This document shows positions 23,767-61,330 of a stretch of DNA of 64,000 nt, in pieces; the first letter of the stretch is position 1; each line of letters opens with the position of its first letter. Source of the stretch: Pachysolen tannophilus NRRL Y-2460 (Eukaryota); contig KV454012.1 in the NCBI GenBank assembly GCA_001661245.1, positions 1,662,418-1,726,417 on the forward strand, given 5' to 3'. The translations under genes were made by a program, and so were the position numbers. A model generated the notes under the pieces. The model saw only the letters and a list, made by a program, of their open reading frames with translations. It had not been told where the DNA came from and searched no databases.

Positions 23767-26379
23767 TTAAATTTCCCAAAGTGCTCTTAGTCTTTTATTT
23801 TTCATCATTGGTTGAGATATAAAGACCCCAACGCATAAAACTAATATAGTACCAATTAACTTTAATTTGTCGAATCCATTCCCCAATAAATCAAATTGTA
23901 AAGAAGGTTGAATCCTGGTGCAGTATATATCATAATCAACGGAGCACACAATGGAAGTTGATTCTAGATTCGTAGGAGTAGAAACGAGTTCCTCAAAAGA
24001 TTTATCGATGTTTTCAATAATCATCAAATTCCTCAAATTCGTTACAGCAGCTTGGTCATAGAAAGGAATTACTGGATTATAACTCATCATCATAAATTCT
24101 TGTTTTTCAGTAGCTGTTAAATCTCTATTCATATCAACTCTTCTACTATTTAATAGAAATTTTGGAATAGATACAATTTGTCCGTTGTATAATAACAGTA
24201 GTATAGCTTTTGTCGTAACGCCAAATCTCGTTCTTGAGACAATCAAACTCTTGATTTTCTCAGGAAAGATAAATGACTTTGTCGAGATCTCAGGAAGTAT
24301 CGTTTCGTTAAAACTAGATAAAAGTCGACCTTCTTCTGAATATCTAACATTTGGAGTTAACGATTCAAACATATCAATGACAACAATCTTTTGATCTGGT
24401 GTTGGAAGTAAACTGAAGTAACTGTAGATAATAAAGTTTTCATCATAGATGACGTTGATATTAAATTCTTCTTTATGTATTTCTTCGTTTTCATGATTAT
24501 TTGTGAAAAGAAATTCCCCAGTTAGAATATTAATCAAATTAATAGATAATGACTTTTCTTTATGATTATAAATGGCTAAAGTTGCTAAATTTGGATATAA
24601 ATATTTGTATAAAACTTTCCCATCTCCTAAAACTATTCCAACTGAAGCAATGTTTTCATTTTTATTATCTTGCCTAGCAGTCAAAGAAACAATTTCTTCA
24701 AATGTTGAATCTATCTCGTATGACCAAGTTTTAACTTGTTCTGTACCTTTAATAATAGAGCCTTCTACAAGAGTATTATTGTTTTTCAACTCAATAATAT
24801 ACTCTGGTTCCAAAATTTGTTGAGTTTGATCAATTATTGTTAAATTCTGTTCATCTTTTAGCCTTAAATAAAATATATCATCTATTTTCATAATTTTTTC
24901 AATTTTTTTGTCAAAACGCTTTATTTCTGTAACTTTCCCATTTAAAGGATCAACTGTAGTAACTGTACTAGATGAAAACAAATAAATTAAATCATTGCTA
25001 CTTTCAACTTTGGAATAAACATCATCTAATTGCACTTTCCACAAAAGTTGATCATTGTTCAGATTTCTTTCTGTCCTGAATGCAAAAAGTTTATTATTTG
25101 AAGTCAAGATAATCAATTTCTTATTAAAGCCAAAATAATTTAGCTTTGAATTATCATCAAATTTGTCAACTTTATTTTGTTTTGAAAATAATTTCAACAA
25201 ATCACTTTTCAATCTATAAAAATATGCATTAATGAAAAATGAATTTTCTTCATGTTCAAGTTCTTTTGTAGCTACAGATAAATCTTCATGTTCAGAAATA
25301 ATTGTATAATCAGTGATATTTGATAATGACTCATCTCTGGACCAAACTAATTTATTATTTTCAAATAACTTAATTTCTTTATCAAAATATTCCAGTACAG
25401 TTAAAATCAAATCATTTTTCAATATAGTGGTCAATTTTTTCAAGTTTTTAAAATCAGGAATTGATCCATTTATTGTATTCAATTCCACACCTGTCTCAGC
25501 ATCGTATACATTAATTGTATTCCAATTATATAATATTATATTTGAATCGACAATATCATATTTCAAGTTATTACTAATATCAAGTTCAAAATTAATCAGA
25601 GATAATGATTTACAAATCAATGTCCCCACAGCTGAAGTTACAAAATTTGATTCATCAATAAGCGCTTCTACTTTTGCATGTATTGGTGATTTTGAACCAA
25701 ATTGATATAAATTCCTGTTATTTAACAATATTTTATTTCCAATTATTTGCTTAATAGCTGTACTTTCAAATACCGATTTTTTGATTGATATTAATTCTAA
25801 TTCTTGAGATAAAATTATTTCTTCATTACCACAAAATAAATGTAATTCTTCATTATTTAAAATTGAAATTTTAATATCATTATTATTATCTTCAAATTTC
25901 AACTCCTTTTCTTTAAAAATTTTTAAATTCTTGTCTAACATTATTACTCTATCATCTGAAATAACTAACAAGTTACCATTACCTAAATTGAATAAGTTTA
26001 AAATGATACCTGGTTGAACAATCTCTTTAACTAATAACCCATCAATTCCAAATATTTTTAATTTAAATCCACCTTGTACACGATTTAATCCCAAAACAAG
26101 ATAATTATCATTAAAATTAACTAAATTCAGTGCACCACTATTATTAATCTCCCCTGATAAATCATACCTCCATAATATACCTCTCTTGTCTAAACCAACA
26201 AACAATTTTGAATCTGTAACGGCGGTTATTATTTCATTATTAACGACAATAGGCCCATTGATAAAATTCCCCACTTGAGATTGTTGCCAATCAATTCTAA
26301 ACAACTCATCATCATAAATCGCATTAATAGGAATTATAACAAGCAGCACTAACAACAATATCGACAACCAACACTTCAT
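23767..26379 (-). CDS. EMC1: ER membrane protein complex subunit 1
   Basis: Signal peptide, WSRDESL, VLGDGKVLYKYLYPNL, T.FGVT.K, PTNLESTS, PS..FD.L and a C-terminal TM. Confidence 0.95.
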   Translation of the reverse strand: MKCWLSILLLVLLVIIPINAIYDDELFRIDWQQSQVGNFINGPIVVNNEIITAVTDSKLFVGLDKRGILWRYDLSGEINNSGALNLVNFNDNYLVLGLNRVQGGFKLKIFGIDGLLVKEIVQPGIILNLFNLGNGNLLVISDDRVIMLDKNLKIFKEKELKFEDNNNDIKISILNNEELHLFCGNEEIILSQELELISIKKSVFESTAIKQIIGNKILLNNRNLYQFGSKSPIHAKVEALIDESNFVTSAVGTLICKSLSLINFELDISNNLKYDIVDSNIILYNWNTINVYDAETGVELNTINGSIPDFKNLKKLTTILKNDLILTVLEYFDKEIKLFENNKLVWSRDESLSNITDYTIISEHEDLSVATKELEHEENSFFINAYFYRLKSDLLKLFSKQNKVDKFDDNSKLNYFGFNKKLIILTSNNKLFAFRTERNLNNDQLLWKVQLDDVYSKVESSNDLIYLFSSSTVTTVDPLNGKVTEIKRFDKKIEKIMKIDDIFYLRLKDEQNLTIIDQTQQILEPEYIIELKNNNTLVEGSIIKGTEQVKTWSYEIDSTFEEIVSLTARQDNKNENIASVGIVLGDGKVLYKYLYPNLATLAIYNHKEKSLSINLINILTGEFLFTNNHENEEIHKEEFNINVIYDENFIIYSYFSLLPTPDQKIVVIDMFESLTPNVRYSEEGRLLSSFNETILPEISTKSFIFPEKIKSLIVSRTRFGVTTKAILLLLYNGQIVSIPKFLLNSRRVDMNRDLTATEKQEFMMMSYNPVIPFYDQAAVTNLRNLMIIENIDKSFEELVSTPTNLESTSIVCSVDYDIYCTRIQPSLQFDLLGNGFDKLKLIGTILVLCVGVFISQPMMKNKRLRALWEI

Positions 26380-27565: not shown

Positions 27566-28699
27566 ATGACATTAATTAGAATCATAAATTCAAGACTTTG
27601 TTTAAGAATGTTTAGGTTTCGAATGTATCGAACAAGTTTTTTTGGAGCCAAAAGGGTTTTAAGTTATTCTTCAATACTGAAGAATAAGAATGGCGCATTT
27701 ATTACGGATAGCATTAGTATATTAGAGCAACAAACAAATTCACTTTTAAAAGATAATAAAAATTTAGAACAAGTTGAATTATCTCTTGATGTATTAAAAG
27801 CTTGTAAGATATTACAGGATAAAATATTATCATTTGATAAGTTTGATTCCAATGGAAAATTACAAGAATTACAAAAAATAAATTTAAAGATATTAAATAA
27901 TTCTAAAATTGATAAAAAATTTTTATCACAATATTGGTTATTAAGACCATATTTTGACGATTTAAAAAATTCAATTGAAATTTTTTATTTGCAAAATAAA
28001 AAACTGATAATTCCTAAAGAATTGGTTATGATACCGTTTAGAAATTTTTTAAAAAATGGTGACATTGATAATGCTATAAAATTACTTGATTTATCAGTTG
28101 CAAGTGATAGATATTTAAAATTTCAAAGAAATAAGACTACAAAATATTTGATTCAATATGCATTATCATGTTTTGGATTTATTGGATTAATTGAAATTTT
28201 AACAAGAATTTTTTTCACCGATGTTCAAAACATGGCTAAAATTTATGCAATGTTATTAGCATATATTGGTAATACATCTTTTTTAGCTACAATTGCATTT
28301 AGCGGTAAGAATTCCCAAACTGATCATTTGAGATTTGCCAATGGTACTTTTCAAAGGTATTGGTCTGAACATGCTGATGAATTGAATATGATATCAAAGA
28401 TTGTTGATGTGGATTTGAAAATAAATGATAAGCAAAATTCGGGATTTATTTCAAAAGAAATTTCAGATGAACTTGGCAAGAGAAATATCATCTATAAAGA
28501 ACCAGAACAAGAGATCATGTTAAGACAATATTGGCTAAGTGGAGGTGATGGCTTCGAATGGGTCGAACCAGATCAAGACCCAGCAGAGTTATTATGGGAC
28601 GAACATTTGAAAAACTTGAAACTGAAAAACTTGAGGCAAAGCTCACAAGAAGATATGCTAGAAATCACTGATCAGATCATCTCCAATAAGAAGAAATGA
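27566..28699 (+). CDS. Uncharacterised probable mitochondrial inner-membrane protein
   Basis: Arg-rich presequence-like start, two TM segments, and a conserved-looking C-terminal WLSGGDGFEWVEPDQDPAE motif. The start could be a downstream ATG. Confidence 0.7.
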   Translation: MTLIRIINSRLCLRMFRFRMYRTSFFGAKRVLSYSSILKNKNGAFITDSISILEQQTNSLLKDNKNLEQVELSLDVLKACKILQDKILSFDKFDSNGKLQELQKINLKILNNSKIDKKFLSQYWLLRPYFDDLKNSIEIFYLQNKKLIIPKELVMIPFRNFLKNGDIDNAIKLLDLSVASDRYLKFQRNKTTKYLIQYALSCFGFIGLIEILTRIFFTDVQNMAKIYAMLLAYIGNTSFLATIAFSGKNSQTDHLRFANGTFQRYWSEHADELNMISKIVDVDLKINDKQNSGFISKEISDELGKRNIIYKEPEQEIMLRQYWLSGGDGFEWVEPDQDPAELLWDEHLKNLKLKNLRQSSQEDMLEITDQIISNKKK

Positions 28700-37740: not shown

Positions 37741-39000
37741 ATGGCGTTATCGATGAAGCGTGATAGTTCGAATTTATCATTATCAACTTCTAGTCACCGT
37801 TCTTTCAAGAAACCACGTATTTCGTTAAACAGGCATCTTAATAAGGATGCTACTGTTTTGAACTGTGGTTATTCCATTCCAATTCCACATGACCAAATAT
37901 TATTAACACGTTCATCAGGTTATTATTGTTCATCGAGTGAAGAGGAAGATCAAGAAGATCAAGAAAATCTTTCTGTTGCTAATGATAATGATGATGAGGA
38001 CTTGGTAAAGACCTTATCTTCTAAGACTAGGCTGCCATCTTTACTGAATAAGAGGAAAATTACTTTGTCGAAAAATAAAAGATGCCTGGGAAAAAACTTT
38101 AAATCAATGCCATCTAATCTTATGAATATAGAGTTGTCACGTGCGATTTCCTTGTACAGTGATGAAGATGAAGAAGTTGATAAGAAAAAGATGAAAAAGA
38201 TGAAGAAGAAGAAGAGTAAGGCTAAAAAGCCTTTGCAGGACAATCAAAATTGTGTGACGAAAGTACCTTCTTTATTATCTGTAAAAGATAAGGAAAGTGA
38301 AGTTGGAGATGATGAAGAAAATGGTTCTTCTTCCTCATCAGCCTTGAAGCCAACCAATGATCAGATTGATAATAATAACAACAACAACAACAACATGTCG
38401 TCATCGTGCTCGTTTAATAGTAAACAGAGAGTTCCCGATTATGATAGAGTTGCCAGATCTAGATGCTTTGAGTATTTGGTTGGTGCTATCGATGAGGCTT
38501 GGGCTAGGTATTGCGATGCGACTTCTTATGCTGAAGAGGAAACGTATGGGTACGATTCACCAAACACCCCAACATCTATCTCAATATCAGATGGAGATGA
38601 AAATGAATCAAGTTGCTCAGGTAATAATGAAACTGAAATTACGGATTATGATGATTCAGATTTCAATGATTCTAAAGAAACTACTTCCCCAACTACCAGG
38701 TATGCCAACGTAAATGTAAATAAGTATATGGCTAGCGGTAGTTGCAGTGGTAGAGTAACAGGTGGTCAGAAAAACCAACATCAATCTTTACAAGATCTTA
38801 AAGATAGATTAACAAATGCAAAGTATTATTTACAAGATTTTGTTGATAGTGACGATTACGAAGATTGTATTCTGTTTTGGAAAAGATGGGATATGATCAA
38901 ATATTGCACTATTGAGTTGGTTGAAGATGACGATGAAGATGATATAGTTGAAAATACAATTGATGAATTGGAAGAAGGTCGTTATCATATTGTCAACTAA
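37741..39000 (+). CDS. Uncharacterised largely disordered protein with two conserved-looking helical blocks
   Basis: 419-aa ORF with blocks ARSRCFEYLVGAIDEAWARYCDATS and LQDLKDRL..AKYYLQD...FWKRWDMIKY, plus NLS-like Lys runs. Confidence 0.75.
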   Translation: MALSMKRDSSNLSLSTSSHRSFKKPRISLNRHLNKDATVLNCGYSIPIPHDQILLTRSSGYYCSSSEEEDQEDQENLSVANDNDDEDLVKTLSSKTRLPSLLNKRKITLSKNKRCLGKNFKSMPSNLMNIELSRAISLYSDEDEEVDKKKMKKMKKKKSKAKKPLQDNQNCVTKVPSLLSVKDKESEVGDDEENGSSSSSALKPTNDQIDNNNNNNNNMSSSCSFNSKQRVPDYDRVARSRCFEYLVGAIDEAWARYCDATSYAEEETYGYDSPNTPTSISISDGDENESSCSGNNETEITDYDDSDFNDSKETTSPTTRYANVNVNKYMASGSCSGRVTGGQKNQHQSLQDLKDRLTNAKYYLQDFVDSDDYEDCILFWKRWDMIKYCTIELVEDDDEDDIVENTIDELEEGRYHIVN

Positions 39001-39065: not shown

Positions 39066-39435
39066 NNNNNNNNNNNNNNNNNNNNNNNNNNNNNNNNNNN
39101 NNNNNNNNNNNNNNNNNNNNNNNNNNNNNNNNNNNNNNNNNNNNNNNNNNNNNNNNNNNNNNNNNNNNNNNNNNNNNNNNNNNNNNNNNNNNNNNNNNNN
39201 NNNNNNNNNNNNNNNNNNNNNNNNNNNNNNNNNNNNNNNNNNNNNNNNNNNNNNNNNNNNNNNNNNNNNNNNNNNNNNNNNNNNNNNNNNNNNNNNNNNN
39301 NNNNNNNNNNNNNNNNNNNNNNNNNNNNNNNNNNNNNNNNNNNNNNNNNNNNNNNNNNNNNNNNNNNNNNNNNNNNNNNNNNNNNNNNNNNNNNNNNNNN
39401 NNNNNNNNNNNNNNNNNNNNNNNNNNNNNNNNNNN
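39066..39435. other. Assembly gap (N run)
   Basis: Run of n. Confidence 1.
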
Positions 39436-39909: not shown

Positions 39910-41202
39910 TCATTTTTTTTGAACAGGTGACTTTGGTCTTAGTTGTTCAATTTCATTATCGATAGGAACGTTACTACCAACTCTGTATAATTCTTGTTTA
40001 TAACTGTTTGGGTCGAAATTATCCAACAATACGTCTGGACTTAAAATGACCCAACCAGATCTTAATCTGATTGGGGTATTTAAACCAACTCTTGAAGGAA
40101 CTATATGTAATCTTCTAGTTGAAGAAGAGAAGTTTTCCAGTACCTGATATAAATGTTGAGGTACTGCATTATTAATCGTTTTGTCATTTTCTATATTCAA
40201 ATCTGTATTGATATTACAATGAATCAAATGATTATCAATTGATCTTCTAACTGTGCCTGTTATACACATCCAACAATGCCATTGCAAATTTTCTAAAAAA
40301 TTTTCATCAGAATCAGATTCACTATAAGGATAATAAGGAGAATCTTTATCAATTGGAACAAAAATTAATTCTTCTGATCTTCTAAATTTTTTATTCCAAT
40401 CTTTATTTTTAATTAATAAATTAGTTAATTCTGTAATTTTTTGAGTAGAAGCCCAAATGAATAAAAAACCTGGTTTGGAACATAATTTATCAATTGGTAA
40501 TTGTGTTAATAATGGATAAATAAATTGATTTTCTGTTAAAGCACCAATCATTATAACATCAAATACCAATTTATCTCTATAAATCCAATTATTTAAAGTT
40601 TCGACCATCTTATTAGGTTCAACTCTACATCCATAAGGTTTTGTTGCATATTGACCAATTTGTTGTTCTTTTAATTTAAATAATCTTTGTAATTTAGGAT
40701 AACCTTCAATTGTATTTTCAACATTTCTAATATATTTAATTGGTAATTTATCTGAATGAATATAATTATTGGAATAATCATTTTTAAAATCTTCCTTCAG
40801 TGAAATCTTGAATCTATTATCCTGTTGAACATTATGATTATGATTACGATTATGATTATGCTGATGATGCTGGTGATGCAGGTGATGCAGATGTTGTTGT
40901 TGTTGTTGCTGCTGCAGTTGTTGCAGTTGTGAGTGCAGCTGCAGTGAGTGCAGTGAGTGCTGCAGCTGAGAGTGCTGATTTTGATTGTTTCTACCAGAAG
41001 GAGTTATAGGGGGTCTACTAGTAGCACCACCAAATTTAGAACGATTCAATCGTTGTGAAACTTGTTGTTGACCCCATGATAATTGCTTAGAGTTCCCAAG
41101 TAATGATGGTTGAATTGTATTTAGTCCAGTTGCGGGCAGATTAATGAAATCATTATTAAATCTTTGCTTTTGGTAATACGAGTTCAACGAATTATAATCC
41201 AT
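39910..41202 (-). CDS. KAR4: Karyogamy factor Kar4 (MT-A70 family, METTL14-like)
   Basis: NDYSNNYIH, FD..MIG.L.ENQFIYPLL, PGFLFIW, FRRSEEL.FVP, QWHCWMCITGTVRRS and IE.LRPKSP. Confidence 0.96.
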   Translation of the reverse strand: MDYNSLNSYYQKQRFNNDFINLPATGLNTIQPSLLGNSKQLSWGQQQVSQRLNRSKFGGATSRPPITPSGRNNQNQHSQLQHSLHSLQLHSQLQQLQQQQQQQHLHHLHHQHHQHNHNRNHNHNVQQDNRFKISLKEDFKNDYSNNYIHSDKLPIKYIRNVENTIEGYPKLQRLFKLKEQQIGQYATKPYGCRVEPNKMVETLNNWIYRDKLVFDVIMIGALTENQFIYPLLTQLPIDKLCSKPGFLFIWASTQKITELTNLLIKNKDWNKKFRRSEELIFVPIDKDSPYYPYSESDSDENFLENLQWHCWMCITGTVRRSIDNHLIHCNINTDLNIENDKTINNAVPQHLYQVLENFSSSTRRLHIVPSRVGLNTPIRLRSGWVILSPDVLLDNFDPNSYKQELYRVGSNVPIDNEIEQLRPKSPVQKK

Positions 41203-42183: not shown

Positions 42184-44265
42184 TTAGTGTTGGGTGATAC
42201 GCACACAATTTCTTTCCATCATATCTATCAACCTATTACAGGCATATATTTCGAGGTATAACTGTGGGAACGAATCCAAGTTGCTCTGGATAATAATAAT
42301 TTGTTTGTTTTGAAATTCATTGAAATACTTTATCAAGTATGGAGTAAGAGTTACTGTGTCATCTTGGTGCAGTGAGATGAACATATTCTTCAACTTGTCT
42401 AGTACATCGGTAAAACTCATTTCTGATCCAAAACTTTGGTAATGTTTGTAATGTTTATAATTTTGGTACAAATAATTTAAAATTAATTCAAAATGAGTTT
42501 CTTTATCACCATTTATTATATCGTTATGGGTGAAAAAATTAACAAGTTTACAATTTAATGAACATGTCAAAATTAATAAAATCTCATTAATTTTGATATT
42601 AATTTGAGTATTATTTTCAAATGATTTAATAAATAATAATGATAAAATCATTGGGAAAATTTTGGTGATATCAAAATAATAATAAAAAAAATTATTTTCA
42701 ATGTCATTTTTAATGTCATTTCTAATTTCATCTTTATGAGCATTATTTTCATATAATGATGAATAGATTCTTAATTTTGATTTTTCAAAAAGTGAAACTG
42801 ATAAACAAATATTTTCATTTTTATGTAATTCCAGAGAATTAATTCTAAAATTTTTCAAAATATCTTCATTTTCAATTTTATCAATTTTATCCATATAATA
42901 ATTATTTTTTGTGAAAATTCCTTTAATTATTTCTTTATTTTTTTCATTATTCTTTAAAATTTTTATAAATAAATCTAAAATCAAATTAAAAATAAGAAAA
43001 TTTTCTTCTTGATTGGTTAATAATAAAGAATAAAATAAATAAGCTCTGAATCTATCATGACCATTAAATAAGGCTAGAAAATAATCATCAAATATTTTAA
43101 AACCTGTATTGGTGAATTTTTCTAAAGTAATAATTAAACACACAGCATAATTATCATTACGATCTTTCTTTTCATCATCTTTTTCTTCTAATGATATTAA
43201 TATTTGATCAAAAAATAAATTATGGAAAACACTTAAAAATAAATGTTGAACAATTTCTTTATCCGATAATCGAATTACATTTTGTAATAAATCAATATAT
43301 TTAATAAAATCTTTTATATCATTATCATTCCTTGAATGTGCAAATAAATTATTTGAACAAATCTTGTTAAAATTTTTTAAAATTCCTGTTACAATTACCT
43401 TGGGAAAAGATGATAATAATAACCAATTTCTTAATTGCTTATTGTGATTAGAAATCTTGATTAAATCTAATAATGATTCAATGATTAAAGAATTTTCATT
43501 TGATAAATAAAGACAATTGCTCAAAATCTCATAAATTGGGAAACAACATTCACTATTATTATCCAGAGATGGCAAAGTATTTTTACAATATTCATCATGA
43601 ACTAAATTTAAAAACCAATCACTAACAATAAAGTCATTTTTGTTTAAACAAAACTCAGTTAATGTTTTGACAAAACTTAAATAATTTGTTAAAGTTAAAT
43701 TGGAAACATTTTTCTTAATATTGTTTAAATATTTTAAAATATTTAACACAGTAAAATTCAAAATTTTGGATATTTTTAAATTATATTCACCAAAAATTTC
43801 ATAACTATAGTTGTCAATTAAAATTTTCATCAATAACAACAGTTGCTGAATCAATTCCACTGAAGGATAATATAAGCAATTAGAACTATCACTATGTAGC
43901 CCTAATTTTGATATCAAGTAAAAAACATCTTTTTCAATCAAATGAATAAGTTTACTCAATGTATTATTTGCCATTATTGATTTATAAAGCGTTTCAAGGT
44001 TTTTCCTTAAAAGTGATTCGTCAAAATTTTTCACATTTGGCTTAACAAAATAACAACAGCATTAGCATATTATTTTTTTTTTTTTTTGCAATAATAAGGC
44101 CATCAAAAATTATGTAGTATATCTTACATTTGTATATACAATTAATAAAGATTCTCTCGTTTCATTGGTAAGATAAATAAATGTTTGATCACATATTTCA
44201 AACTTATTTTCATTGACTGCATTGGGTGAAACCAATTTTTTTAAATTGCTTGAAAAACTATTCAT
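42184..44265 (-). CDS. Divergent helical-repeat protein, probable FHIP/RAI16-like (FAM160); intron 44041-44127
   Basis: A 46-codon exon 1 (MNSFSSNLKK...VYTN) joins in frame through GTAAGA...TGCTAAT...AAG. LRNWLLLSSFPKVIVTGI, FIKYIDLLQNVI and FENNTQINIKINEIL resemble RAI16-like blocks. Confidence 0.55.
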
Positions 44266-44699: not shown

Positions 44700-47474
44700 T
44701 CATTTTTTTCTCATTTTTTTACAATAATCAATTAAAATTTTCTTGTACAAAATGCCCATAAATTGCCCATTTTCATGGTTTAATATAGCAATTTCTCTAT
44801 TACCTAGCTTGCTGAAAATGAAATAGCAGTAGGATAACTTCGAGTTATCACTAATCAATATTGGATTATAATCAATAACGTTGACAAAGTTTGTTAAATC
44901 GCTTAACAGCTTAGCTATTAGCTCCAGTGTATCATCTTCATGCACACTATTATTCGCTGCTGTGCTACTTGAAATTATAGAATATACATCTGCATTAGTG
45001 CCGACTGCATCATCATTATCTTTGATCAATTTAATATAGATTTCTTCATTTATATTATACTCTGAAATAAATTCATCAATTTTGTCTAATCTCAATTCCA
45101 AGTCAGGCAATGAAATTAAACCAACAAACTCTTCTTGATCTTTTTCTTCAGTGGTGACATCTCCTATTTTTTTCAACTTTTTAGTTTGTGCAATAATTGG
45201 TAAGCATCCATCAATTAACGAGTTCAGCTTTAAATAATTTAATTTTAGTTTCAACTTTGAGGCTGGGAAATAACCATCATCAACACGAACTATTAAATTT
45301 TCATTTCCACAATCGTCCATTAGTAAATCTTTCAGAGTTGTAAAATTGTTTTCAAAAACTGGTGGGTTTCTATTATCCAAAATTGGAAAATCATTATTAT
45401 CAATCAAAATTTCATATAGTGATCTTGGCTCAATCATATTAGCAATCCAATTGGATACCGCTATAGCAATGGAAATAGGCAAGACATAAGTATAAGAGGA
45501 AGTTAGTTCGAACAAGATTGTTGCTAATGTAACATTCATTCTAGTCACTCCTGCCATAAATGCTCCTGCACCAATCATGGCAAAAATCCCAAGATCAACA
45601 TAAGTTTCTCCATCTCTTAGATGTTTAGAAAATAAAAAAGCAGAAGGATAAAGCATCACAAAATATTGCATTATCATTGCAAATAATCTGCCAAATAGAG
45701 CACCAATAACCATTGAAGGGACATAGATACCAGCTGGTAACTTGATTCCAAACGTAATACTTGTCAAAAAAATTTTGATAATTAAAGCAATAGATAAATA
45801 CCGAATTTCATTTAGGACTTCACCAAATTTGATTATGACAATACTTCCTGCATCAGATAATTGTTTTTCTTCCAAGATAGAACACTTATTTTCAATAGTG
45901 CAGGGACTTGCCAATTTGTATAATAGCTCTGTAGTGGGTGTCTTTGAATATTTATTATAATATGTGGTTAAACCAGTAACTAGGGCGATCAATAAAACTT
46001 CTCTAACAGGATGATGTTTAATCAAGGAATTTTTTCTGAAAAATTTATTCCACCATTGAGTAAATAAGCAAAAACATGCACCAAAAATCCCTCCTGCAAC
46101 TCCAAGAATGATGTAAAAAATTAATTCAACTGGTTCCCAATCTGAGTTATAATGAACTTCAAAAATTACTGTTTTACCAGTTTCGTAAGGATTTAAGAAT
46201 TTTAAAAATAATACTGAAGAAATTGCACAAAAAAATATATGAAACAATTGATTTATAGGTAAATAATAAGCAACTTCTTCAATGACAAATAATACACCAC
46301 CTAATGGCGAACCAAAGGCTAATGCAACACCAGAACCTGCAGCCGCACTCAATATTTGTCTTTTCTCCAATTCATTTGTGTTTATGCTAGTGAAAAGACG
46401 GCAGCATATATTCCCAATACATGTTGATAAATGCACATAAGGGCCTTCCTTACCTAAAGCCATACCAGATGCAATGGCTAATACCAAGGCAGTAGATTTA
46501 CATAATAAGGTCCAAGTACCCAAGAATTTTCTTATAATGAAACCAGATAATATTGTTTTAACTTCAGGAACACCAGAACCATATGCTGTATACCATATTC
46601 TATGATTATTTGTCTTACAATCTTTTCCTCGTAAAGGATTAATAGTTTTCGTTAAAAGTGTAATACGAACTGCCAGAAACGCTAGAATCAAAGTTAAAGC
46701 GACATAAATTGAAAACTCTAATGGGAAAATTGAATTGAAATCATAAAACCTGTCTGACCACATCTTAAAATCTTTACACATTGCAATGTTATTATCTCTA
46801 ATCCAAAATTCTGGTGGTGTCGGTACCATCAGTTTTGAAGAACAGCAAGTGCTTTCACTTAATAGCCAATTTGCGGAACAATATCCTCTTTTCAAATCAA
46901 CCAAGACATTCTCCACTTTATCTATGCTATATGCTAGTAATGAGCAACAAAATGAGATTATCAAAATCAAAACCCAAGATTTTAATTGATCAATATTTTT
47001 AAATATCTTATACTTGAAAGATTTTTTTGATTTTTTATTCAAATATGTTAATCTCTCGGATTGCTTTATTGAATTTTGTAACCAATCTACAGTTGTAAAA
47101 TCATCATAGAAATTTCTCTCTAAATTAGTGTTAGGGCCATTAGCATTATCATTTTGACTATGAATACTATCTTGATGATTTTCAATAGACCCATAATTAG
47201 CTCTCAAGCTACTCTTGTTTCTTATTGAAAGCTGAGATGGAACACTTGCATACCTCATTAAAACCTTTGTTGGGTCTTCAATATTATTTGTATTAGAAGA
47301 CGAGTGCTGATATGTGAAATAATCATTATTAGCGTCGCTATTGATAGTGTTGTTGTTATTGTTATTGTTAATTCTTGGAGATCTTAACGATTGATTATAA
47401 GTAATGTCCAATAACCTTTTTAAAGGAGTAGTTTTATTTTCATTATTGTTATCATTATTATCGTTAGCCATCAT
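44700..47474 (-). CDS. CLC chloride/proton exchanger (Gef1-related, probably a second fungal CLC clade)
   Basis: GSGVPE, GKEGP, FVIEE, PAGIYVP, SLYE and degenerate CBS domains. First ATG at 47474. Confidence 0.93.
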   Translation of the reverse strand: MMANDNNDNNNENKTTPLKRLLDITYNQSLRSPRINNNNNNNTINSDANNDYFTYQHSSSNTNNIEDPTKVLMRYASVPSQLSIRNKSSLRANYGSIENHQDSIHSQNDNANGPNTNLERNFYDDFTTVDWLQNSIKQSERLTYLNKKSKKSFKYKIFKNIDQLKSWVLILIISFCCSLLAYSIDKVENVLVDLKRGYCSANWLLSESTCCSSKLMVPTPPEFWIRDNNIAMCKDFKMWSDRFYDFNSIFPLEFSIYVALTLILAFLAVRITLLTKTINPLRGKDCKTNNHRIWYTAYGSGVPEVKTILSGFIIRKFLGTWTLLCKSTALVLAIASGMALGKEGPYVHLSTCIGNICCRLFTSINTNELEKRQILSAAAGSGVALAFGSPLGGVLFVIEEVAYYLPINQLFHIFFCAISSVLFLKFLNPYETGKTVIFEVHYNSDWEPVELIFYIILGVAGGIFGACFCLFTQWWNKFFRKNSLIKHHPVREVLLIALVTGLTTYYNKYSKTPTTELLYKLASPCTIENKCSILEEKQLSDAGSIVIIKFGEVLNEIRYLSIALIIKIFLTSITFGIKLPAGIYVPSMVIGALFGRLFAMIMQYFVMLYPSAFLFSKHLRDGETYVDLGIFAMIGAGAFMAGVTRMNVTLATILFELTSSYTYVLPISIAIAVSNWIANMIEPRSLYEILIDNNDFPILDNRNPPVFENNFTTLKDLLMDDCGNENLIVRVDDGYFPASKLKLKLNYLKLNSLIDGCLPIIAQTKKLKKIGDVTTEEKDQEEFVGLISLPDLELRLDKIDEFISEYNINEEIYIKLIKDNDDAVGTNADVYSIISSSTAANNSVHEDDTLELIAKLLSDLTNFVNVIDYNPILISDNSKLSYCYFIFSKLGNREIAILNHENGQFMGILYKKILIDYCKKMRKK

Positions 47475-49319: not shown

Positions 49320-50381
<1,062 letters not shown>

Positions 50382-50535
50382 AGAAATAATGTTTAAAAAT
50401 AACTATATATATATAAAAAAAAAAGTAACTTTTAAAACAATAAAATAGTTGATAAAAAAAAAAAAATGAATATCGAAGGAGAAGTGATAAAGCTAAATTC
50501 CAAAAATTTTCGAAATGAAATTGAAAAAAATATAT

Positions 50536-50571
<36 letters not shown>

Positions 50572-50943
50572 NNNNNNNNNNNNNNNNNNNNNNNNNNNNN
50601 NNNNNNNNNNNNNNNNNNNNNNNNNNNNNNNNNNNNNNNNNNNNNNNNNNNNNNNNNNNNNNNNNNNNNNNNNNNNNNNNNNNNNNNNNNNNNNNNNNNN
50701 NNNNNNNNNNNNNNNNNNNNNNNNNNNNNNNNNNNNNNNNNNNNNNNNNNNNNNNNNNNNNNNNNNNNNNNNNNNNNNNNNNNNNNNNNNNNNNNNNNNN
50801 NNNNNNNNNNNNNNNNNNNNNNNNNNNNNNNNNNNNNNNNNNNNNNNNNNNNNNNNNNNNNNNNNNNNNNNNNNNNNNNNNNNNNNNNNNNNNNNNNNNN
50901 NNNNNNNNNNNNNNNNNNNNNNNNNNNNNNNNNNNNNNNNNNN
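50572..50943. other. Assembly gap (N run)
   Basis: Run of n. Confidence 1.
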
Positions 50944-51685
50944 AAAAAAAAAAAAAAAAAGCAGATAAAATATTACTTTATAATTAATAGTTTTTGTTAA
51001 TAGCTTTCTTGTTATTTCCCCAGAGAACATTTTGGTTCTTATTCAAGTGTAACCTTTTTTTTTTTTTTTTTATTTTACTTTATTTTTTTTTTCTTCTTCT
51101 TCATCTTTCTCTATTTTTTATATATTCATTTTTATTATTTTTTCTTATATTTTATATTGTTATCGGGGAATTGATGTATTGTTACAATTTTAAGCCCTAA
51201 TATTTTTTATAGCAGCGTTAACTTAGATTAAAATAATTGAATATCAATAAAGTAGAGTAGTAGAATAATTATCAGTTGATTTATCTTTTCCGTATATAAT
51301 ATAAATTAAAGAAAGAGCCACTTTTATCGTATGTTGCAGTGGCTGCTACTGCAGTTGGTAATAAATTCAGATCTGCTTTATTGGTATAAATTTGAAATTT
51401 CACTTTGAAACTGAAGCATTTAAAAAAAACACACTTTTTACAACTTGTTCTTGACTCCTACAGAATAATTTGGAAAATGTTTTTGGCTAATATAGCGTAT
51501 ATCTGCATTTTTACTTACCAGTAGTATTAACTTTTAAGAAGTTATTTTTGATAACAAGATGGGAACTATGATAAAATAAATAATAAAAATAATCAAAATA
51601 GGACAAAAAAAAAGAATAAAAAAAAAACATAGGAAAGAAAGAAAAAACCTAACAAAACATTTGGCTGTATTAAAAATCAAACTTC

Positions 51686-53314
51686 TTATTTGGCCCATTC
51701 TTCACCTTTCAATAAACCTGTTTGTCTTGGAATATATTCAACTCTATGATATGAATTAAGGTTTTTTCTTAAGGTAATTTGATAACAAGTAGCACCACCA
51801 TCTCTTGAAATAATCGTTGATGAAGCCAAGAAAAATTCCCAAATTCTAAACCATTTAATACCATACTTGTTGACAACTTTATCCTTGTTAGACATCCAGT
51901 TTAAGTACCATCTGTATAAAGTAGCTGAATAATGAACACCAATATTGTCAACAGCAACAACTTCGAAACCAACACCTTCCAATTTAGATGTAACAAAATC
52001 TAATGGGGTTGAAGCATCAGCACCTGGGAAAATGTACTTGTTCATGAATAATCCCCATTGTAAATCTTCATATTGCCATGGTTTTCTTAAACCAGAATAT
52101 TGGAAACAAATTATACCATCATCTTCAAGCATATCATATAATTGTTGTAAAAATGAACCAAATTTTCTAATACCAACATGTTCAGCCATCTCAAGACAAG
52201 TAATCTTATCATATTTCTTGGTTTTACCATCACTATCTTTAGGTAATGGTGTATCTCTGTAATCATGACATAAAATTTTGGATTGAGATTCTGGAATACC
52301 ATATTTCTTTAATTGTTCATTACCATATTTAGTTTGATTTTTACCCAATGTAATACCTGTGACTTTAGCACCATATTTATAAGAAGCAAAAGAAGCAAGA
52401 GTACCCCAACCACAACCAAGATCTAATAATTGTTCACCTGGTTTCAAATCAATTTTTTCTAATACTGTTTTCAATTTGTTATCTTGAAGTTGTTCCAAAG
52501 TTTCAGACTTGTTAATATCTGAAATAACACCAGAAGTATAAATCATTCTGTCACCTAAGAACCAACTATAAAAATCATCACCACGATCATAATGATCTCT
52601 AACTTGTTCTTCATCTTGAGACTTGGTGTGCATAATAACTTCTGGAATCATATCCAAGAGAAAATATTTGAATAAACTAATGGTGAATTTGAAATTACAC
52701 CAATCATGTCTATATTCTAAAATATCTAATGCATCACCTTTAAAAGAAACTTTATTGGCAAAATATAATTCATGAAAAGTTTCATATGGAATTTTATTTT
52801 GACCAGAATATTTCTTGGCAAGTTCCTCATCATGAAATTCCAAATAATATTCAACACCTCTGTTTGGTAACTTAACTTTTTCATTAATACGTGGAGAATA
52901 TGTTGAAAGTACAGTCCAGTAAGCCATTAAAATTGGAATGACCAATAAGATAGTGAAAAAGATAAAAGTCTTAAAACCACCTCTAAACTTTCTTGTAACA
53001 AAATACGGAATCAAAACAACAATGGCAATCAACAACAAATTAGAAAAATGTTTTGAACCAGGACCATCTGCTGGCAATGGAGCATTTTTAATACATGGAT
53101 ACTAATTGAATAAAATAAAAATAATAATAATAATAATAATAATTGTTAATATTCCAACTTGAAAAAAAAAAAAAAAAAATTCAAATTAGTTACTCACGTT
53201 TGTTGTTCTATAACCACAATCAAATTCATCAAGTTTACGAGTTCCCGATGATTGCTGTTGATCATTGGATGCTTGATTTCCAACAAACTCATAAGAAGAA
53301 CTTGGTGACGCCAT
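51686..53314 (-). CDS. MTS1: Sphingolipid C9-methyltransferase (glucosylceramide pathway); intron 53102-53197
   Basis: Spliced CGYRTTN|YPCIKNAPLPADG (GTGAGT...TAG). QDEEQVRDHYDRGDDFY, LDLGCGWG, CLEMAEHVG and YIFPGADAS (CFA-synthase-like). Confidence 0.93.
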
Positions 53315-53971: not shown

Positions 53972-56614
53972 TCATCTCTTTTTAAACCACCATTTGTGTT
54001 TCTTCTCTTTCTTCTGCATATTCTGCGACCCTATTGATCTGAGATCAGAATTATTGTTCTTTATGCTAAAGGCACTGCTGGAAGTTGTTTTTGATGCGTC
54101 ATCAGTGTTGTTACCATTTGTATCGCCACTACTCCGCCTGCTTATGTCAAAACCTTCAACAACGCGTAGTGGTGATCTATAGGCATCGTTATCCGATATA
54201 TGAATCATAGGACCAGGTTCGCCAATATCAAGAAATGACGATGATTCCAACAATGGGAAAGTGTAAGTTGCTTTCTGAGTTAAAGTACAATTGATTTCCT
54301 CATCATCTGTAGTGTCATTACCAACAAAAGTAACACTATTATCTCTTTGACTATCATCTAAACAGTAGTTTTTCAATGTTGATTGAGAATGAGGAGATTT
54401 GAAGTGTTGACCTGATGAAAATTTTGTCCTTGGAGTGTAAACAAATACCAGTTCTTCTTTTCCCAATATTTTCGTAGGAGATTTATATGAATCAGTTTTT
54501 CTATGATTAATATCTTTATTATAAGATGTAGTGGATGAAATAAAAGAAGAAGAAGTATGAGATTCTGCAGGGACTCCATAATCATGTTGTGTGATAGCTG
54601 TAGCTGACAAAGATTTTCTATGGAATTTGGATGATATTGTATTAAATAATGAATTGTTTTTCTTGTGCTGTTTTCGTATCTTAGAAGACAGCAATTTATC
54701 TTCACCATTAACAGAACCAATACCATCATCTTTACCGATAGCACCACCTGTACTATTTGCCTTTATATTATTAACGCTATCAGATGATTTGGTCAAAATA
54801 TTAGAAGATGAAGAAGATTTCTTCTTTTTAGATGTATGAGAAGATGTCCTTGATGCTAAAGAACTCGATAAAACACTTTCGTCTGTAATTGAAGAAGAAC
54901 GCAGATAAACCTTATCAGAATGTTTTCTTGAATGTGTTTTTCTATGATTAACCAGTTCAATGCTCGATGTACTATTGGAAAAAGTTTTTGATCTTTCATG
55001 TCCTCTACTATACTGTTCTTTTCTTAAAGGGGATGAAGAACGAATCAATTCTGAGCCAACATTACCGAAAAACAGCTTTGTGGGAGCACTACTAGATGCA
55101 GAATTATTATTGACACCAATAGTACTTGAAGAAGGATTACTTGTATTCTTATTCACATCTGATAAATCTAAACTATCACCACCATGGTAGTAGTTTCTTA
55201 ATAAACCTTCAGGCATATCATATATAACACTTTCGTAATTTAAAGCACTTCTATTATATTTTTTCATACTACTGGTTCTGACAGGTGATCTTGAGGCAGA
55301 TCTATTTCTCAAATGGACTGTAGGTTGTGGAGATAATGCCTTACTATCAGTATTTGTTTTCTTCCAACCATTGTTATATTGATTTCCCATACCACTAACA
55401 ACTTTTTGTTGATTACTATAATAAGACTGGTACCTAGCTTTACTTCTTAAACTAGTAATACTTGGAGTTTTTGTATCAGTCAATAAATGGCTTGTTAAAG
55501 AATTTTGGCTTGATGGATTGTGTAAATTTTTATTAAAATTTACTGCTGGTTGTAATTGCAGTTGCAGTTGTAAATGTGATTGTGATGATTTTTGAGATTG
55601 TTGTGACTGTTGTAAAGAGTTACTTGAATGCAAAGAATTTGCCGAATTATTAAAACTCGTAAACATAATAGCGTTACTATTAGTTGAAGCTGTTGACATT
55701 AGTAATGAATTTATAGATGATGACTCAGAAGCATTATTATTATTAATATTATTACCGTTGTTATTGTTATTGTTATTGTTATGATCATTGATCGAGTCTT
55801 GATCATCAAATCTACCATCGTCAATTTTATTATTATTATCCGGAACTTCTTCTTCATCTTCTTCCACTATTGGATTCCCGTTCCTGACAGGAGATGTAAA
55901 ATTACCAGGACCTGTACCTGGAATAGCTCCAAAAATTCTTCCGCCATCTGCATTGAAAAATGTATTATTAAATTCTGGAGCACTTTCAGTTCTATGATGT
56001 CTTATAGTAGGAGTTGGTCTTGAAATAATGTTATTATTAATATCGTCCAAATCGATTAAAGCATTTGGAATGTTTGTTGATTTATCAATCTTAGTTTCAT
56101 CTGTTATAAAAAATTTTGTAACAAAATTTGGAGGTGATGAACAATTTTTAAAAGGACTATCATATAAAAAATTATTTGAATTTTCTGTGGAAGCAGAAGA
56201 ATCCATAGTAACAACCAACGGTGGAGGTGGTGTAATCTTTCTCTCATCCATAGAACGTACGGGAAAGGAAATACTATTATCCGCCGCAGATGGTGTTGGT
56301 TGAAGATAACTTTTTTTGGAATTTATTCTTACTGGACTTGTAAAACCTGAACCTGGTGCACTCTTTGATATTGAAGATTGTTGTTGTTGTTGTTGCTGTT
56401 GCTGTTGTTGCTGAAAATTCGGTTGTGCTGGAGGAATAAACAAGCCTATACCGTTAGCGCTATTGATATCAAAATCTCCAGATATTGCCGATGACCTCTT
56501 GTGCCAATGCCTTCGGATATTGGGCGGCAGAAGTTGCTGGGGATTCGAACCATTTATATTTATATTCATTTCTCCTGGAGCTGCTGCTGTTGTTGCTGTT
56601 ATTGACATGGACAT
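53972..56614 (-). CDS. LRE1: Lre1/Hlr1-family Cbk1 regulator (low complexity)
   Basis: HKRSSAISGDF, FFIT..T......IP.ALIDLD and HHRTESAP motifs. Neighbour of PBN1 as in S. cerevisiae. Confidence 0.8.
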   Translation of the reverse strand: MSMSITATTAAAPGEMNININGSNPQQLLPPNIRRHWHKRSSAISGDFDINSANGIGLFIPPAQPNFQQQQQQQQQQQQSSISKSAPGSGFTSPVRINSKKSYLQPTPSAADNSISFPVRSMDERKITPPPPLVVTMDSSASTENSNNFLYDSPFKNCSSPPNFVTKFFITDETKIDKSTNIPNALIDLDDINNNIISRPTPTIRHHRTESAPEFNNTFFNADGGRIFGAIPGTGPGNFTSPVRNGNPIVEEDEEEVPDNNNKIDDGRFDDQDSINDHNNNNNNNNGNNINNNNASESSSINSLLMSTASTNSNAIMFTSFNNSANSLHSSNSLQQSQQSQKSSQSHLQLQLQLQPAVNFNKNLHNPSSQNSLTSHLLTDTKTPSITSLRSKARYQSYYSNQQKVVSGMGNQYNNGWKKTNTDSKALSPQPTVHLRNRSASRSPVRTSSMKKYNRSALNYESVIYDMPEGLLRNYYHGGDSLDLSDVNKNTSNPSSSTIGVNNNSASSSAPTKLFFGNVGSELIRSSSPLRKEQYSRGHERSKTFSNSTSSIELVNHRKTHSRKHSDKVYLRSSSITDESVLSSSLASRTSSHTSKKKKSSSSSNILTKSSDSVNNIKANSTGGAIGKDDGIGSVNGEDKLLSSKIRKQHKKNNSLFNTISSKFHRKSLSATAITQHDYGVPAESHTSSSFISSTTSYNKDINHRKTDSYKSPTKILGKEELVFVYTPRTKFSSGQHFKSPHSQSTLKNYCLDDSQRDNSVTFVGNDTTDDEEINCTLTQKATYTFPLLESSSFLDIGEPGPMIHISDNDAYRSPLRVVEGFDISRRSSGDTNGNNTDDASKTTSSSAFSIKNNNSDLRSIGSQNMQKKEKKHKWWFKKR

Positions 56615-57211
56615 AATATGAGTCCAGTCTCCATATGATGAAAAAAAAAAAGAATAAAAATAAGAAAAAAAAAGAATTGTGTGACGTATAGTAAATAACC
56701 AACTAACTAAAATGCGATGTTCTGATTTTTTTAGTACTAATTAATTATTACTCTATTGCGGAGTCCACCCTTTCCTTTCCTCTAAAAAATAAACTCAAAA
56801 AAAAAACACAAGAAAAAAAAACAAAAAAAAACAAAAAAAAAAATTTATTTTTAAGAACGACCAACACAGTATAGTTCAAAGTCAAAGTTTTCAGTCTAAT
56901 AATAAAGTCTGGAAGATTTCTTTAACGGATAACGAAATAACGATATGTAATTATAATTTTTGATGTCTCTGTTTAACGGAAAAACGAATGGACGCCAACT
57001 TTTCTTTTTCTTCAAGTAACTTAATAAAATCTCTTGTATTAGCGGTTAAACTATTGAAAAGTAGCAAAGTTAAAACAAAAACCCAAATAAAAAAAAAAAA
57101 AAAAATTCAAATTAAAGAGAATTCCCCTAACACCTTTGTTATGATATGACAAATATGTTAATTCTCTCTAATTCATTGATTGATATATCTTATATGAATA
57201 TATATTTTTTA

Positions 57212-57242
<31 letters not shown>

Positions 57243-60200
57243 TATATATTTAAATGGAAACGGTGTACGAATTAATCGCACGTACAGTTTTACGGAATCT
57301 GTAAGTTTTTATAAAAAATAAAATAAAAACGAGCCAAAAAAAAAAAAAAAAAAGAAATTTTAAAGGTCCCTCCGCCAAAAAAAAATTAGCAACTAGAGCA
57401 AGTTTTTTAATATATATATAAAAAATATATATAATAACCATTAATTTTTAACGGCGTTTAACCTAAAAAGAATAATTTAAAATCTATTTAAAAGCACTGC
57501 ATTAGACCCATATCAGTAACAAGGACCAGGGCATGTTAAAAAAATAATATTAAAAATAAAAATAAAATCCAAATCCATTTGAAGATTAATTGAATTTGTT
57601 ATTTTTTTTTGAATGTGTATGTATGTTTTGTGAGTTTCGCAGAATGTGAGTCCAAATGTAATATGTAACTTGAGTAACCTTCTTTTCTTTTCTTTTTTTT
57701 TCTTTGCAAATATATAGGCGTGCTACTATTATTATTTTTTATTAAAAAAAAAAAAAACGTACCTAATCAAAAGTTAATCATATTATGCCACTTTGACTGT
57801 ACTGCAGTTCATTAAACAATATGACAAACATTATAGTTTCAGCGGAACCGAGTTATCAACGCGTTGTTGTATATGGCAGTGGAAAATTTAAGATCTTCAG
57901 TGTGGACTAAATAGAGATATGACATACGACTTGAAAAAAAAAAAAAAAAAGAAAATTTTAAAACTGATACGCGTCCTTTACCGAATACAGAATTACAGCA
58001 GCATTTTAGCTTAGCAGCCGATGAAATGTAAACTAGACTCAATCGCTAGAGTAATTTACATATATTCAACTAATTTACAACTAAAGAAGATGGACTTATT
58101 CAGTCTAATATTTCTAGATATGTATATCTGCAACAACATGTAACAACAACATTTTTAATTTGCTTTGGAAGCCAAAGAAAATTAATTTTTTGAATTAATT
58201 GTAGTTTTTGAAATTATCTTTACCCCTAGTTTCAAGATTTTACCTTTTGATTGCAGATCTGGATAGAAATAAAAGAGAAAAAGAAAAAAAAAGTGCAAAT
58301 TTAAAGTTTTCTTTTTTTAGGTTTTTTTTATTTTTTTTTTGTAAAAGGAAAACAGTTTACCTAATGGGGAAATGTAATATTTTACATGGTTTCATGTTTA
58401 AAGTACCCATACTCTTTTACATATGTTTTTCTTTTTTTTTATTTTTTACCTTATGGTGCGTATCGTTTCCATGTTTCATTAATTGGTCATAGGCCTAAGC
58501 CAATAAAAATAAACACAATAAGATCGATGATTATGGGTGAAATGAATTCAAACGTCATTTTTCATTTTTTTCATTTTTTCATTTTGCTTTTTGTTCTATT
58601 TATTAGATTCATTTTTTTTTTTTAGTTTTTGCAGAAGAACGCGTGACTGCAAAACGTACATACGAGTTTAAATAAAGAGAGGACTAAATATTTAAAGTTT
58701 ACTCTCTCTACTGAACTCGAAAGATAAAAAAAATTATAGGTGTACAAAATTTGACTATTTTTTTTTTTCTTGTTTTTGTTCTTGTTCTTGAGGTGACAAT
58801 AACCCAATAGACCAAATTAATCATTTTAGGAAAATCTTTCTGCAGCTTTTCAATTTTTTTTTTTTTTGTTTGTTTGTTTTTTTGAGATATATTTTATTTT
58901 AAAATGGCAAAAAAAAAAAAAAGCATAACCCTTGTCCAAGCCGTACTTCTGCTATTCCCTGGATTTAGACCCATAATGAAGAATGCACATGGTTAATTTT
59001 CCGCATTAGATAAGAGCAAGCCATAGTTTGGACCAAACTTTTAAAATTTTAATCAAGAAATTGTGAACTCTTTAGGTACGGGCTTGGCATATCAAGAAAG
59101 AAAAACAAAAACTTTTCTCTCTTTCTCTCTCTTCCTTAAGATAAGAAAGTTTGTATGTATGTATATACGAGTTATCGATGTATTAATGAACCTTGTAAAA
59201 AGATCGATTATCTTCACCGACGATATCTACTAAACACACATAAGAAAAACTAACTTATTTATTATATATGTAGAAAATAGAATTCATATCGGAAAACACC
59301 GCGCGTGTATTCATATTCGAAACGTAATATGTGTAAACCTTTAAACTTTTAACCAAAATGATTGCTTAACTACTTCTGTAGTGAACATAATCAGTTCATT
59401 CAATTCTTAGTAAATTGATAGATTATAACAGTAGCGCTAAAACACAGAGAGTATCTCTAGCGTTTTTATTTTGTGCATCTGTTTATCTCCGACAATCTCC
59501 CAGTGTAACCATGGAAAATGTGCATAAACTTTTTTTTGTTTTTCTTGTTTTGTTTAGTAAAAAAAAAAAAAAAACTTTGAAGCTTATTTCCTGACTTGGA
59601 AACTTTGAAAACTCTTTTAGCAGATAAACATATAAATACAGATAAACAGCGGAATAAGCCCAATAAGCTCAAAAAATCAAAAAAAAAAAAATCAACAGTG
59701 CTGAAAAGCAGAAAAAGGGAAAATGAAAACATTTGTTGGATGGGGTAGATAGAAAGAGAGAACTTTGAATGGATGCAACTGCAGTGGCGGTACATGCAAT
59801 TGCAATGACTATGATGCATTTGAACTTTAGATATCAAGCTCAGCCGTTCAATGCTATAATCTTTGTTCATCTAATCCAAGTAAGTTTCTCTAGCAACATC
59901 TTTAATCTTTAGGGCCTCCCGCTAAAAGAGAGCAAAAAAAAATAAAATAAATAAACTGATTAGCTTTAACTTTCTTAACTTGCTCTTCCTTTTCCTTAGA
60001 TTGCTCTTCATACTAATTAAAACTCTAATAGAGTAATGGTATTTGAAATCAAACTTTCACCTTTAATACCGCTTTGACTTTGCCTAGATAAGATCCATTT
60101 TTCACTCTTGAATTCTTTGAGCTCACCACTAAGGTTATGCACTAGAGGTGTACACTATATAAGATTATACAGTACCAGGCCTAAATAATAATAATGTCCA

Positions 60201-60527
60201 ATATTAGCAGTACTATTTGTAGTAAGAAGTTTATTTGCTAGCTCTAAAAAAAATTCCAGCATCAGTTAAACATAAACCTTCAATACCTTTTAATACCATC
60301 GCCTGGAGAGTACGAACTCTTTTCATAAAACTCAATTTAGTTTATTAACTGATATCTTGAATTTTTTTTTAAAGCAAAAAAATTAGAAAATTCAAAAAAG
60401 CTGATATCTTTCATATTGTCGTAATATGATAATGATTTACTTGCTTTGAAATATTACAGACTACCGCAGTTACTGGATGAATATGGCTATACAGCATTAT
60501 TACTTGGGGCAAGGTTATGAAAATTTC

Positions 60528-60561
<34 letters not shown>

Positions 60562-61330
60562 CAAAATGATAGATCCAAATTTAGAATGAATGGTTTACTC
60601 AATTGTATATTAATTATAAATTTAGAATCAAAACAAGGTTTTAAAGTTGAAGGTCAAAAAATTTTACACATTGAGGTACTTTAGTGGATATTTGTTAAGT
60701 CTGAATTTTGAAAGTATTGTTTCTCATTATAAAATTGAACACCAACAAGGCATTCTGCAAGGTCCAGAAAATAACTTTAAAGCTTTTAAATCAGTTAGTT
60801 ATCCAAATCAATATTAATAACAAGAAAAATTGTGTTTAATTTCGAATAAAATTGCTTTCTTGATGAAATGAAGATAGGGGAAGTGAATAATTATGTCAAG
60901 TTGAAAACTCACGTTGGTTGCAGTATGGGGTCTTATTTTTATAGGAAGCTTTTTATAACGTAGTTTTGATGTCGTATTAGTGGAATCAAAAAATTAATTG
61001 TTGGTTTTAAAAATGATCACTTCTTTTTTGAAAAATATCAATGAATATTATATTGAATCTTCCAAAAAAAAAAATTGCAAAATCATGTCTTAAACTGGTT
61101 AAGCCTGAATATAGAACCTATTGAGTCAATACGGCAAAGAAAAAGGTGTTAAGAAAAATTAGGTGATGGGTTATAAATGATGATTTCAGAAAAACCATAG
61201 CAATGAATTAAACAAGAAATTCACAAATAAAGACCAAAATAATGAAGCTATTGATGATTTAACCGAGAATTTGGATTGGATTATTATATTATAACAAAGT
61301 TTTTATGTACTTAAAAATTCAACTATTTCT

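Follow-up and report, generated by a model that had tools for sequence, protein, structure and literature searches.

We analysed a stretch of 64,000 nucleotides of contig KV454012.1 from the assembly of Pachysolen tannophilus NRRL Y-2460 (GCA_001661245.1), hereafter the window, for the meaning that the codon CTG has in its genes. Our results make it very likely that CTG is read here as alanine (Ala), that is, that the window belongs to one of the CUG-Ala budding yeasts, translated under NCBI table 26. Taken by itself, the evidence in the window supports this meaning moderately. The reassignment is not new: it was published in 2016 and has been in print since then with tRNA and mass-spectrometry evidence and an NCBI table of its own, and our analysis adds nothing to it scientifically. 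For this very genome it is already known, because the public gene records use CTG=Ala. An initial annotation of the window had drawn the same inference from CTG codons that it placed at conserved Ala positions of KAR4 and ALG6, and had given a CTG in a DE-x-L motif as a counter-example. All these codons are present on the minus strand, at 40140-40138 (KAR4), 10431-10429 and 10350-10348 (ALG6) and 262-260 (DE-x-L), and the inference is favoured by Pfam profiles, ortholog columns, public records and relatives. From this support it follows, as had also been claimed, that the leucine (Leu) translations supplied with the sequence are wrong at CTG codons.

The most telling sites lie in ALG6, whose protein was aligned with the 119 homologs returned by a deep search besides its own record, the CTG codons of the query being masked as X. 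The open reading frame (ORF) and its CTG codons, with the residues found in the corresponding alignment columns, are as follows.

9331-10956, minus strand: ALG6 ORF, 541 amino acids, Pfam Alg6_Alg8 at E=4e-140, 5 CTG codons.
10831-10833, minus strand: ALG6 CTG codon 42; column L54/I41/V21, variable hydrophobic.
10657-10659, minus strand: ALG6 CTG codon 100; column Ala in 115 of 119.
10429-10431, minus strand: ALG6 CTG codon 176 (AA-x-ILFQP); column Ala in 94 of 119.
10348-10350, minus strand: ALG6 CTG codon 203 (CTT CTG AGT); column L45/Y43/F17, variable.
ALG6 CTG codon 541, the C-terminal residue; column K40/T14/Q11.

On this alignment codon 100, overlooked in the initial annotation, appears as the strongest site of all. 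Opposite codons 42, 100, 176 and 203, the residues of Saccharomyces cerevisiae Alg6 (PDB 6snh) are V, A, A and Y, and around codon 176 this protein reads A-S-A-ILFQP, in agreement with the SAILFQP given for it in the annotation. The description of the quoted sites as conserved Ala positions hence stands for codon 176 and fails for codon 203, whose column is divided between Leu, Tyr and Phe; for the KAR4 site, treated below, it is unsupported. Conserved Leu positions tell the same story from the other side. Of the 31 ALG6 columns with a Leu share of 75% or more, the query encodes 28 by TTG (17), TTA (9) or CTT (2) and none by CTG, so that the interchange of CTG and other Leu codons at such conserved sites, which a standard code would predict, was not observed.

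Under the standard code, CTG would mean Leu and the sites in Ala columns would be Ala-to-Leu substitutions peculiar to this lineage, a reading that we consider highly improbable. Of the 10 ALG6 columns in which Ala makes up 75% or more, two would then hold Leu in the query. Among the 120 sequences, at least two Leu residues in these 10 columns are found only in the query, so read, and in one other protein, P0010, which has three; in the four columns with 90% Ala or more, Leu is again confined to these two sequences. At column 100 the Leu of the query would be one of only two among the 120 sequences, the single Leu among the 119 homologs being that of P0010. This assembly-derived ALG6 protein, with 60% identity to the query, shows Leu at precisely columns 100 and 176, and opposite CTG codon 203 of the query it shows Ala. 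The simplest reading would be to assign P0010 to a sister species that shares CTG=Ala and had its genes called under the standard table, because Leu at columns 100 and 176 together with Ala at 203 fits what such a mistranslation would produce. The case suggests that assembly-derived gene calls in large protein collections may hold mistranslated residues for CUG-Ala yeasts.

The site on which the initial annotation had centred its claim lies in a KAR4/METTL14-like gene.

39910-41202, minus strand: KAR4/METTL14-like ORF, 430 amino acids, Pfam MT-A70, 11 CTG codons.
40138-40140, minus strand: KAR4-like CTG codon 355 (CAG GTA CTG GAA AAC TTC), a non-discriminating site.

A search of the PDB with the KAR4-like protein returned METTL14 chains only (17 distinct sequences) and did not find yeast Kar4, for which the annotation had given IAENF. 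Codon 355 faces Ile in human METTL14, the sole solved relative found, and the MT-A70 profile scores Leu 0.3 bits above Ala. Judged from these comparisons, the codon alone is weak evidence for CTG=Ala. Eight of the 11 CTG codons of this ORF fall within codons 80-108 (40879-40965, minus strand), a low-complexity stretch rich in CAG, CAA and CAC that under table 26 becomes a tract rich in Gln, His, Ser and Ala. The cluster may have its origin in repeat dynamics, because CTG is the reverse complement of CAG.

The annotation had proposed that the residues opposite CTG be read from ortholog alignments. To the ALG6 alignment we added one of the CLC chloride channel, built on 150 cluster representatives, in which only two of the six CTG codons have well-occupied columns.

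46674-46676, minus strand: CTG codon 267 of the CLC chloride-channel ORF (44700-47474); column L42/I34/V19/T14/A10/S7.
45333-45335, minus strand: CLC CTG codon 714; column V43/A43/L20/I11.

A Codetta-style sum of log-odds over the seven CTG columns of these two alignments gave +3.0 bits for Ala, +0.06 for Leu, -2.0 for Val and -19.3 for serine (Ser), and in the accompanying control the standard meaning was recovered for 54 of 58 other codons. In-frame CTG thus favours Ala over both Leu and Ser in ortholog columns. Leu reaches 75% in none of the seven columns, and Ala has the plurality in two of them, as compared with 4 of the 160 columns of other Leu codons (Fisher p=0.02; two deep alignments).

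The same columns bear most directly on a Ser meaning, as in the Ser1 (Candida/Debaryomyces) or Ser2 (Ascoidea/Saccharomycopsis) yeasts and as given by table 12, to which we assign an even smaller probability than to the standard code. Ser falls 22 bits under Ala on them; at ALG6 column 100 there is no Ser among 119 homologs, and at column 176 there are two. Four of the seven columns are hydrophobic (L/I/V/Y/F/A), and the CTG codons at conserved Ser or polar positions that Ser codes would predict were not seen in the alignments on which this judgement rests. Furthermore, the public records of genes in the window use Ala, and the ALG6 proteins of Ser1 and Ser2 yeasts are less similar to the query (Babjeviella 54%, Ascoidea 50%, Yamadazyma 48% identity) than those of its nearest homologs carrying a species name, which are Leu2-clade Pichiaceae (58-62%). 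A 44-row ALG6 tree, made up of the query, its 29 named homologs and 14 further near homologs out of the 120 sequences, places the query together with Kuraishia, Komagataella, Ogataea, Brettanomyces and Candida boidinii in a clade of 20 rows (support of 92 in the Shimodaira-Hasegawa-like approximate likelihood-ratio test, SH-aLRT), and within it groups the query with P0010 and a long-branched Yamadazyma (SH-aLRT 96). This position is compatible with the one expected for a sister of the Leu2 clade, in a tree of one gene that does not settle how the clades branch.

As a whole, the CTG columns resemble neither those of typical Leu codons nor those of typical Ala codons. This intermediate character is what a dual decoding, in which CUG yields either Ala or Leu, might produce, by analogy with the stochastic Ser/Leu decoding of CUG in Ascoidea asiatica, the dual coding described in one yeast (PMC6041473; this paper, PMC4937558 and PMC5951914 are cited here from excerpts). 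Such decoding would explain why three of the seven alignable CTG codons stand in hydrophobic columns with a Leu plurality and, if true, would add to the case of Ascoidea asiatica another type of dual decoding of a sense codon in yeasts. These columns are, however, variable hydrophobic ones rather than conserved Leu, and they would be equally expected for recent Ala codons derived from Leu or Val. Moreover, the excerpted mass spectra of Pachysolen show Ala at 97.2% of fully supported CUG positions (PMC4937558). We therefore regard an Ala/Leu dual decoding as just as improbable as Ser.

CTG-bearing ORFs were also scanned against Pfam under tables 1, 12 and 26, in which CTG is Leu, Ser and Ala respectively. 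Ten families shifted by at least 0.2 bits, with the following scores in bits.

Git3: Leu 269.1, Ser 272.4, Ala 273.1.
GPR_Gpa2_C: Leu 98.8, Ser 100.6, Ala 100.8.
Alg6_Alg8: Leu 468.3, Ser 469.8, Ala 473.0.
PalH: Leu 175.8, Ser 178.0, Ala 177.3.
UNC45-central: Leu 54.0, Ser 56.2, Ala 55.3.
EMC1_C: Leu 224.5, Ser 223.3, Ala 224.2.
MT-A70: Leu 45.0, Ser 44.7, Ala 44.7.
Voltage_CLC: Leu 251.3, Ser 254.8, Ala 251.1.
PIG-X: Leu 151.0, Ser 151.1, Ala 151.5.
Mgr1: Leu 72.3, Ser 72.5, Ala 72.6.

Summed over the ten families, Ala exceeds Leu by 13.5 bits; it scores higher in seven and trails by no more than 0.3 bits in the remaining three. As a control, the true Leu codon CTA (76 codons, as compared with 86 CTG) was reread in the nine ORFs that hold these families. 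Reading CTA as Ala cost 22.4 bits and reading it as Ser 28.9 bits, and all six families that shifted fell. The response of CTG is hence the reverse of that of a real Leu codon, which the standard code does not account for. Unlike Pfam, the ortholog columns separate Ala from Ser, and Ala is the only meaning that is strong in both the column and the profile tests. The remaining families were static, apart from a 0.1-bit shift in PHD-1st_NSD, a below-threshold match; in a second round with nine further ORFs Mgr1 alone shifted, and no Pfam family was found for the ORFs 21815-23635, 27566-28699, 37741-39000 and 42184-43974.

Codon usage points in the same direction. The window has 27.8% guanine plus cytosine (G+C). 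Its ATG-started ORFs of 150 or more amino acids number 28, and CTG accounts for 86 of their 13,819 codons. Three of them (18639-19331, 50359-51030 and 50466-50987), which overlap each other or extend over masked N runs, were dropped from the codon counts; in the 25 retained, CTG is found in 20 (80%), with 85 CTG in 13,165 codons, or 3.4 per ORF. Within the CTN box of these 25 ORFs, CTG has a share of 24% and a ratio to CTA of 1.16. For the codon ending in G, the seven other four-fold boxes give shares of 4-12% and G/A ratios of 0.09-0.54, so that the share of CTG is 2-6 times that of its counterparts, at a G+C content of 28% and contrary to what a standard Leu codon would lead one to expect. 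This is suggestive only, and indicates that CTG is not acting as a synonymous member of the CTN box in this AT-rich genome.

Public protein records agree with the Ala meaning wherever a match was obtained. The public copy of ALG6 (P0001) departs from the standard translation at the five CTG codons only, with Ala in all five, and that of EMC1 (P0122) has Ala at six of six CTG codons. An exact look-up of five further ORFs found GPR1, CLC, SHE4 and PBN1 recorded as their table-26 translation (NCBI, UniRef, nr) and none of the five as the table-1 translation. In sum, six of the seven ORFs checked, with 29 CTG codons, are recorded exactly as CTG=Ala. The exception is the KAR4-like ORF, which, taken from its first ATG, is missing from the public records under both tables; the public model of this gene probably has a different start or an intron.

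Several points weigh against reading CTG as Ala. The sample is small, seven CTG columns in two deep alignments, the margin of Ala over Leu on these columns is only about 3 bits, and the log-odds method, which miscalls AAC (13 columns), TAC (7), TCG (3) and CGG (1), is fallible at seven columns. Leu has the plurality in three of the seven CTG columns as compared with 3 of 54 for GCN codons (p=0.017). These three columns (ALG6 42, ALG6 203 and CLC 267), weak at 30-46% Leu, speak for the standard code, as do EMC1_C, MT-A70 and Voltage_CLC, in which Leu is slightly preferred (by 0.2-0.3 bits over Ala), and the Leu that S. cerevisiae has opposite EMC1 codon 329 and PBN1 codon 206 in low-confidence alignments. 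The S. cerevisiae residues opposite the CTG sites of SHE4, PBN1 and YNG2, which are poorly conserved, are Q, P, L, M and A. A Ser meaning draws support from Pfam, which has no resolution between the two small residues (+13.3 bits for Ser and +13.5 for Ala, both over Leu) and scores Ser above Ala, and best of the three, in PalH, UNC45-central and Voltage_CLC; it draws support too from the ALG6 tree, in which a single gene draws the long-branched Yamadazyma (tenuis, of the Ser1 clade) beside the query. The Pfam and alignment tests overlap at the ALG6 sites and are not fully independent of each other, and the public Ala translations follow the table that the annotators chose and do not measure the decoding independently. 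Finally, a tRNA scan of the 64-kb window, with introns allowed or not, found one tRNA-Leu(TAA) only and no tRNA(CAG).

13008-13093, plus strand: tRNA-Leu(TAA), 86 bases, between the RIM21/PalH and SHE4 genes.

For the mechanism of the Ala reading, the literature points to a tRNA with anticodon CAG and alanine identity elements, which would read CUG and would receive its alanine from an alanyl-tRNA synthetase indifferent to the anticodon. In the excerpted report on Pachysolen tannophilus, its tRNA(CAG) carries G3:U70 and A73, and the features that define the code further include a short variable arm and the absence of a tRNA-Leu(CAG) (PMC4937558). The CTG codons present today would mostly not be ancestral Leu codons. 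Some stand at Ala sites kept by the orthologs and others at weakly conserved hydrophobic sites that tolerate Ala, and we would expect those in hydrophobic columns to postdate the reassignment and to derive from TTG, CTN or GTG by the change of a single base. In practical terms, the standard or a bacterial table misplaces Leu for Ala at about three positions per gene in about 80% of the genes. Table 26 should therefore be used for translating this genome.

Further CTG sites lie within Pfam domains or at the edge of the window.

3268-3270, minus strand: CTG codon 86 of the GPR1-like ORF (1132-3525), within the Git3 domain; the public record is the Ala form.
2560-2562, minus strand: GPR1-like CTG codon 322, within the GPR_Gpa2_C domain.
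24196-24198, minus strand: CTG codon 728 of the EMC1 ORF (23767-26379), within EMC1_C; Met in yeast EMC1 and Ile in human EMC1.
260-262, minus strand: CTG of an edge ORF (SDE-x-LMDI), in ORF 2-616, which runs off the start of the window.

A deep homolog search with EMC1 returned its own record only. In PDB comparisons of EMC1, SHE4, PBN1 and YNG2 the CTG sites lay where conservation is poor or the alignment of low confidence, and they were excluded as evidence. The edge ORF 2-616, a putative MDV1 in the initial annotation, which took the position of its counter-example to be usually Leu, had no significant match in the PDB or Pfam.

The gene content of the window is typical for a budding yeast, with GPR1-like, ALG6, RIM21/PalH, SHE4/UNC45, YNG2-like and EMC1 genes as well as MGR1, a Zn-cluster factor, the KAR4-like gene, the CLC channel, ARF and PBN1. 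Its two most conserved genes, ARF (49836-50381, plus strand, 181 amino acids) and a CMAS-type methyltransferase (51686-52927, minus strand, 413 amino acids), contain no CTG codon at all. An ORF of 880 amino acids at 53972-56614 (minus strand), rich in Ser, Asn and Gln, of low complexity and apparently disordered, has eight CTG codons and no Pfam family, and a deep homolog search with it found nothing at E<=1e-10, its own record included. The following region of about 4.6 kb, 56741-61330, holds no ATG-started ORF of at least 150 amino acids, only short stop-to-stop frames, at 21-32% G+C. The masked N runs total 1,261 bases.

18710-19227: N run.
39066-39435: N run.
39439: N run.
50572-50943: N run.

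The ORFs 18639-19331, 50359-51030 and 50466-50987 are artefacts of this masking.

Among the known deviations of CUG, the Ser1 yeasts (Candida, the 'CTG clade', table 12) resemble the window in being budding yeasts whose CTG has moved off Leu, is rare and avoids conserved Leu, and the preference for small residues at several sites of the window accounts for the near-equal Pfam scores of Ser and Ala. They differ from it in that the CTG columns of the window are either Ala, almost without Ser, or hydrophobic, with Ser 22 bits under Ala. The Ser2 yeasts (Ascoidea, Saccharomycopsis) represent a third independent change of CUG in budding yeasts in which mixed column signals would be possible (PMC6041473, as excerpted), but the Ascoidea ALG6, 50% identical, lies elsewhere in the tree, and the columns of the window carry no Ser signal.

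The closest likeness is to Pachysolen and the Ala clade (table 26), from which we found no difference in the window. According to the excerpts of PMC5951914, this clade comprises Pachysolen, Nakazawaea and Peterozyma and is a deep sister of the Leu2 clade (Kuraishia, Komagataella, Ogataea, Pichia), and the nearest named relatives of the window are indeed Leu2-clade Pichiaceae. The excerpted account of Pachysolen counts 16,824 CUG codons in 5,288 predicted genes, with CUG in 80% of genes (PMC4937558); in the AT-rich window 80% of the ORFs likewise have CTG, at about three per gene. In the same account, CUG is mostly at conserved Ala positions, and the positions held in common with standard-code yeasts occur only in poorly conserved columns. 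The window, too, mixes Ala columns with weakly conserved hydrophobic ones, some of its CTG codons standing in Ala-conserved columns and none of those aligned in a Leu-conserved column, and its genes are publicly translated with CTG as Ala.

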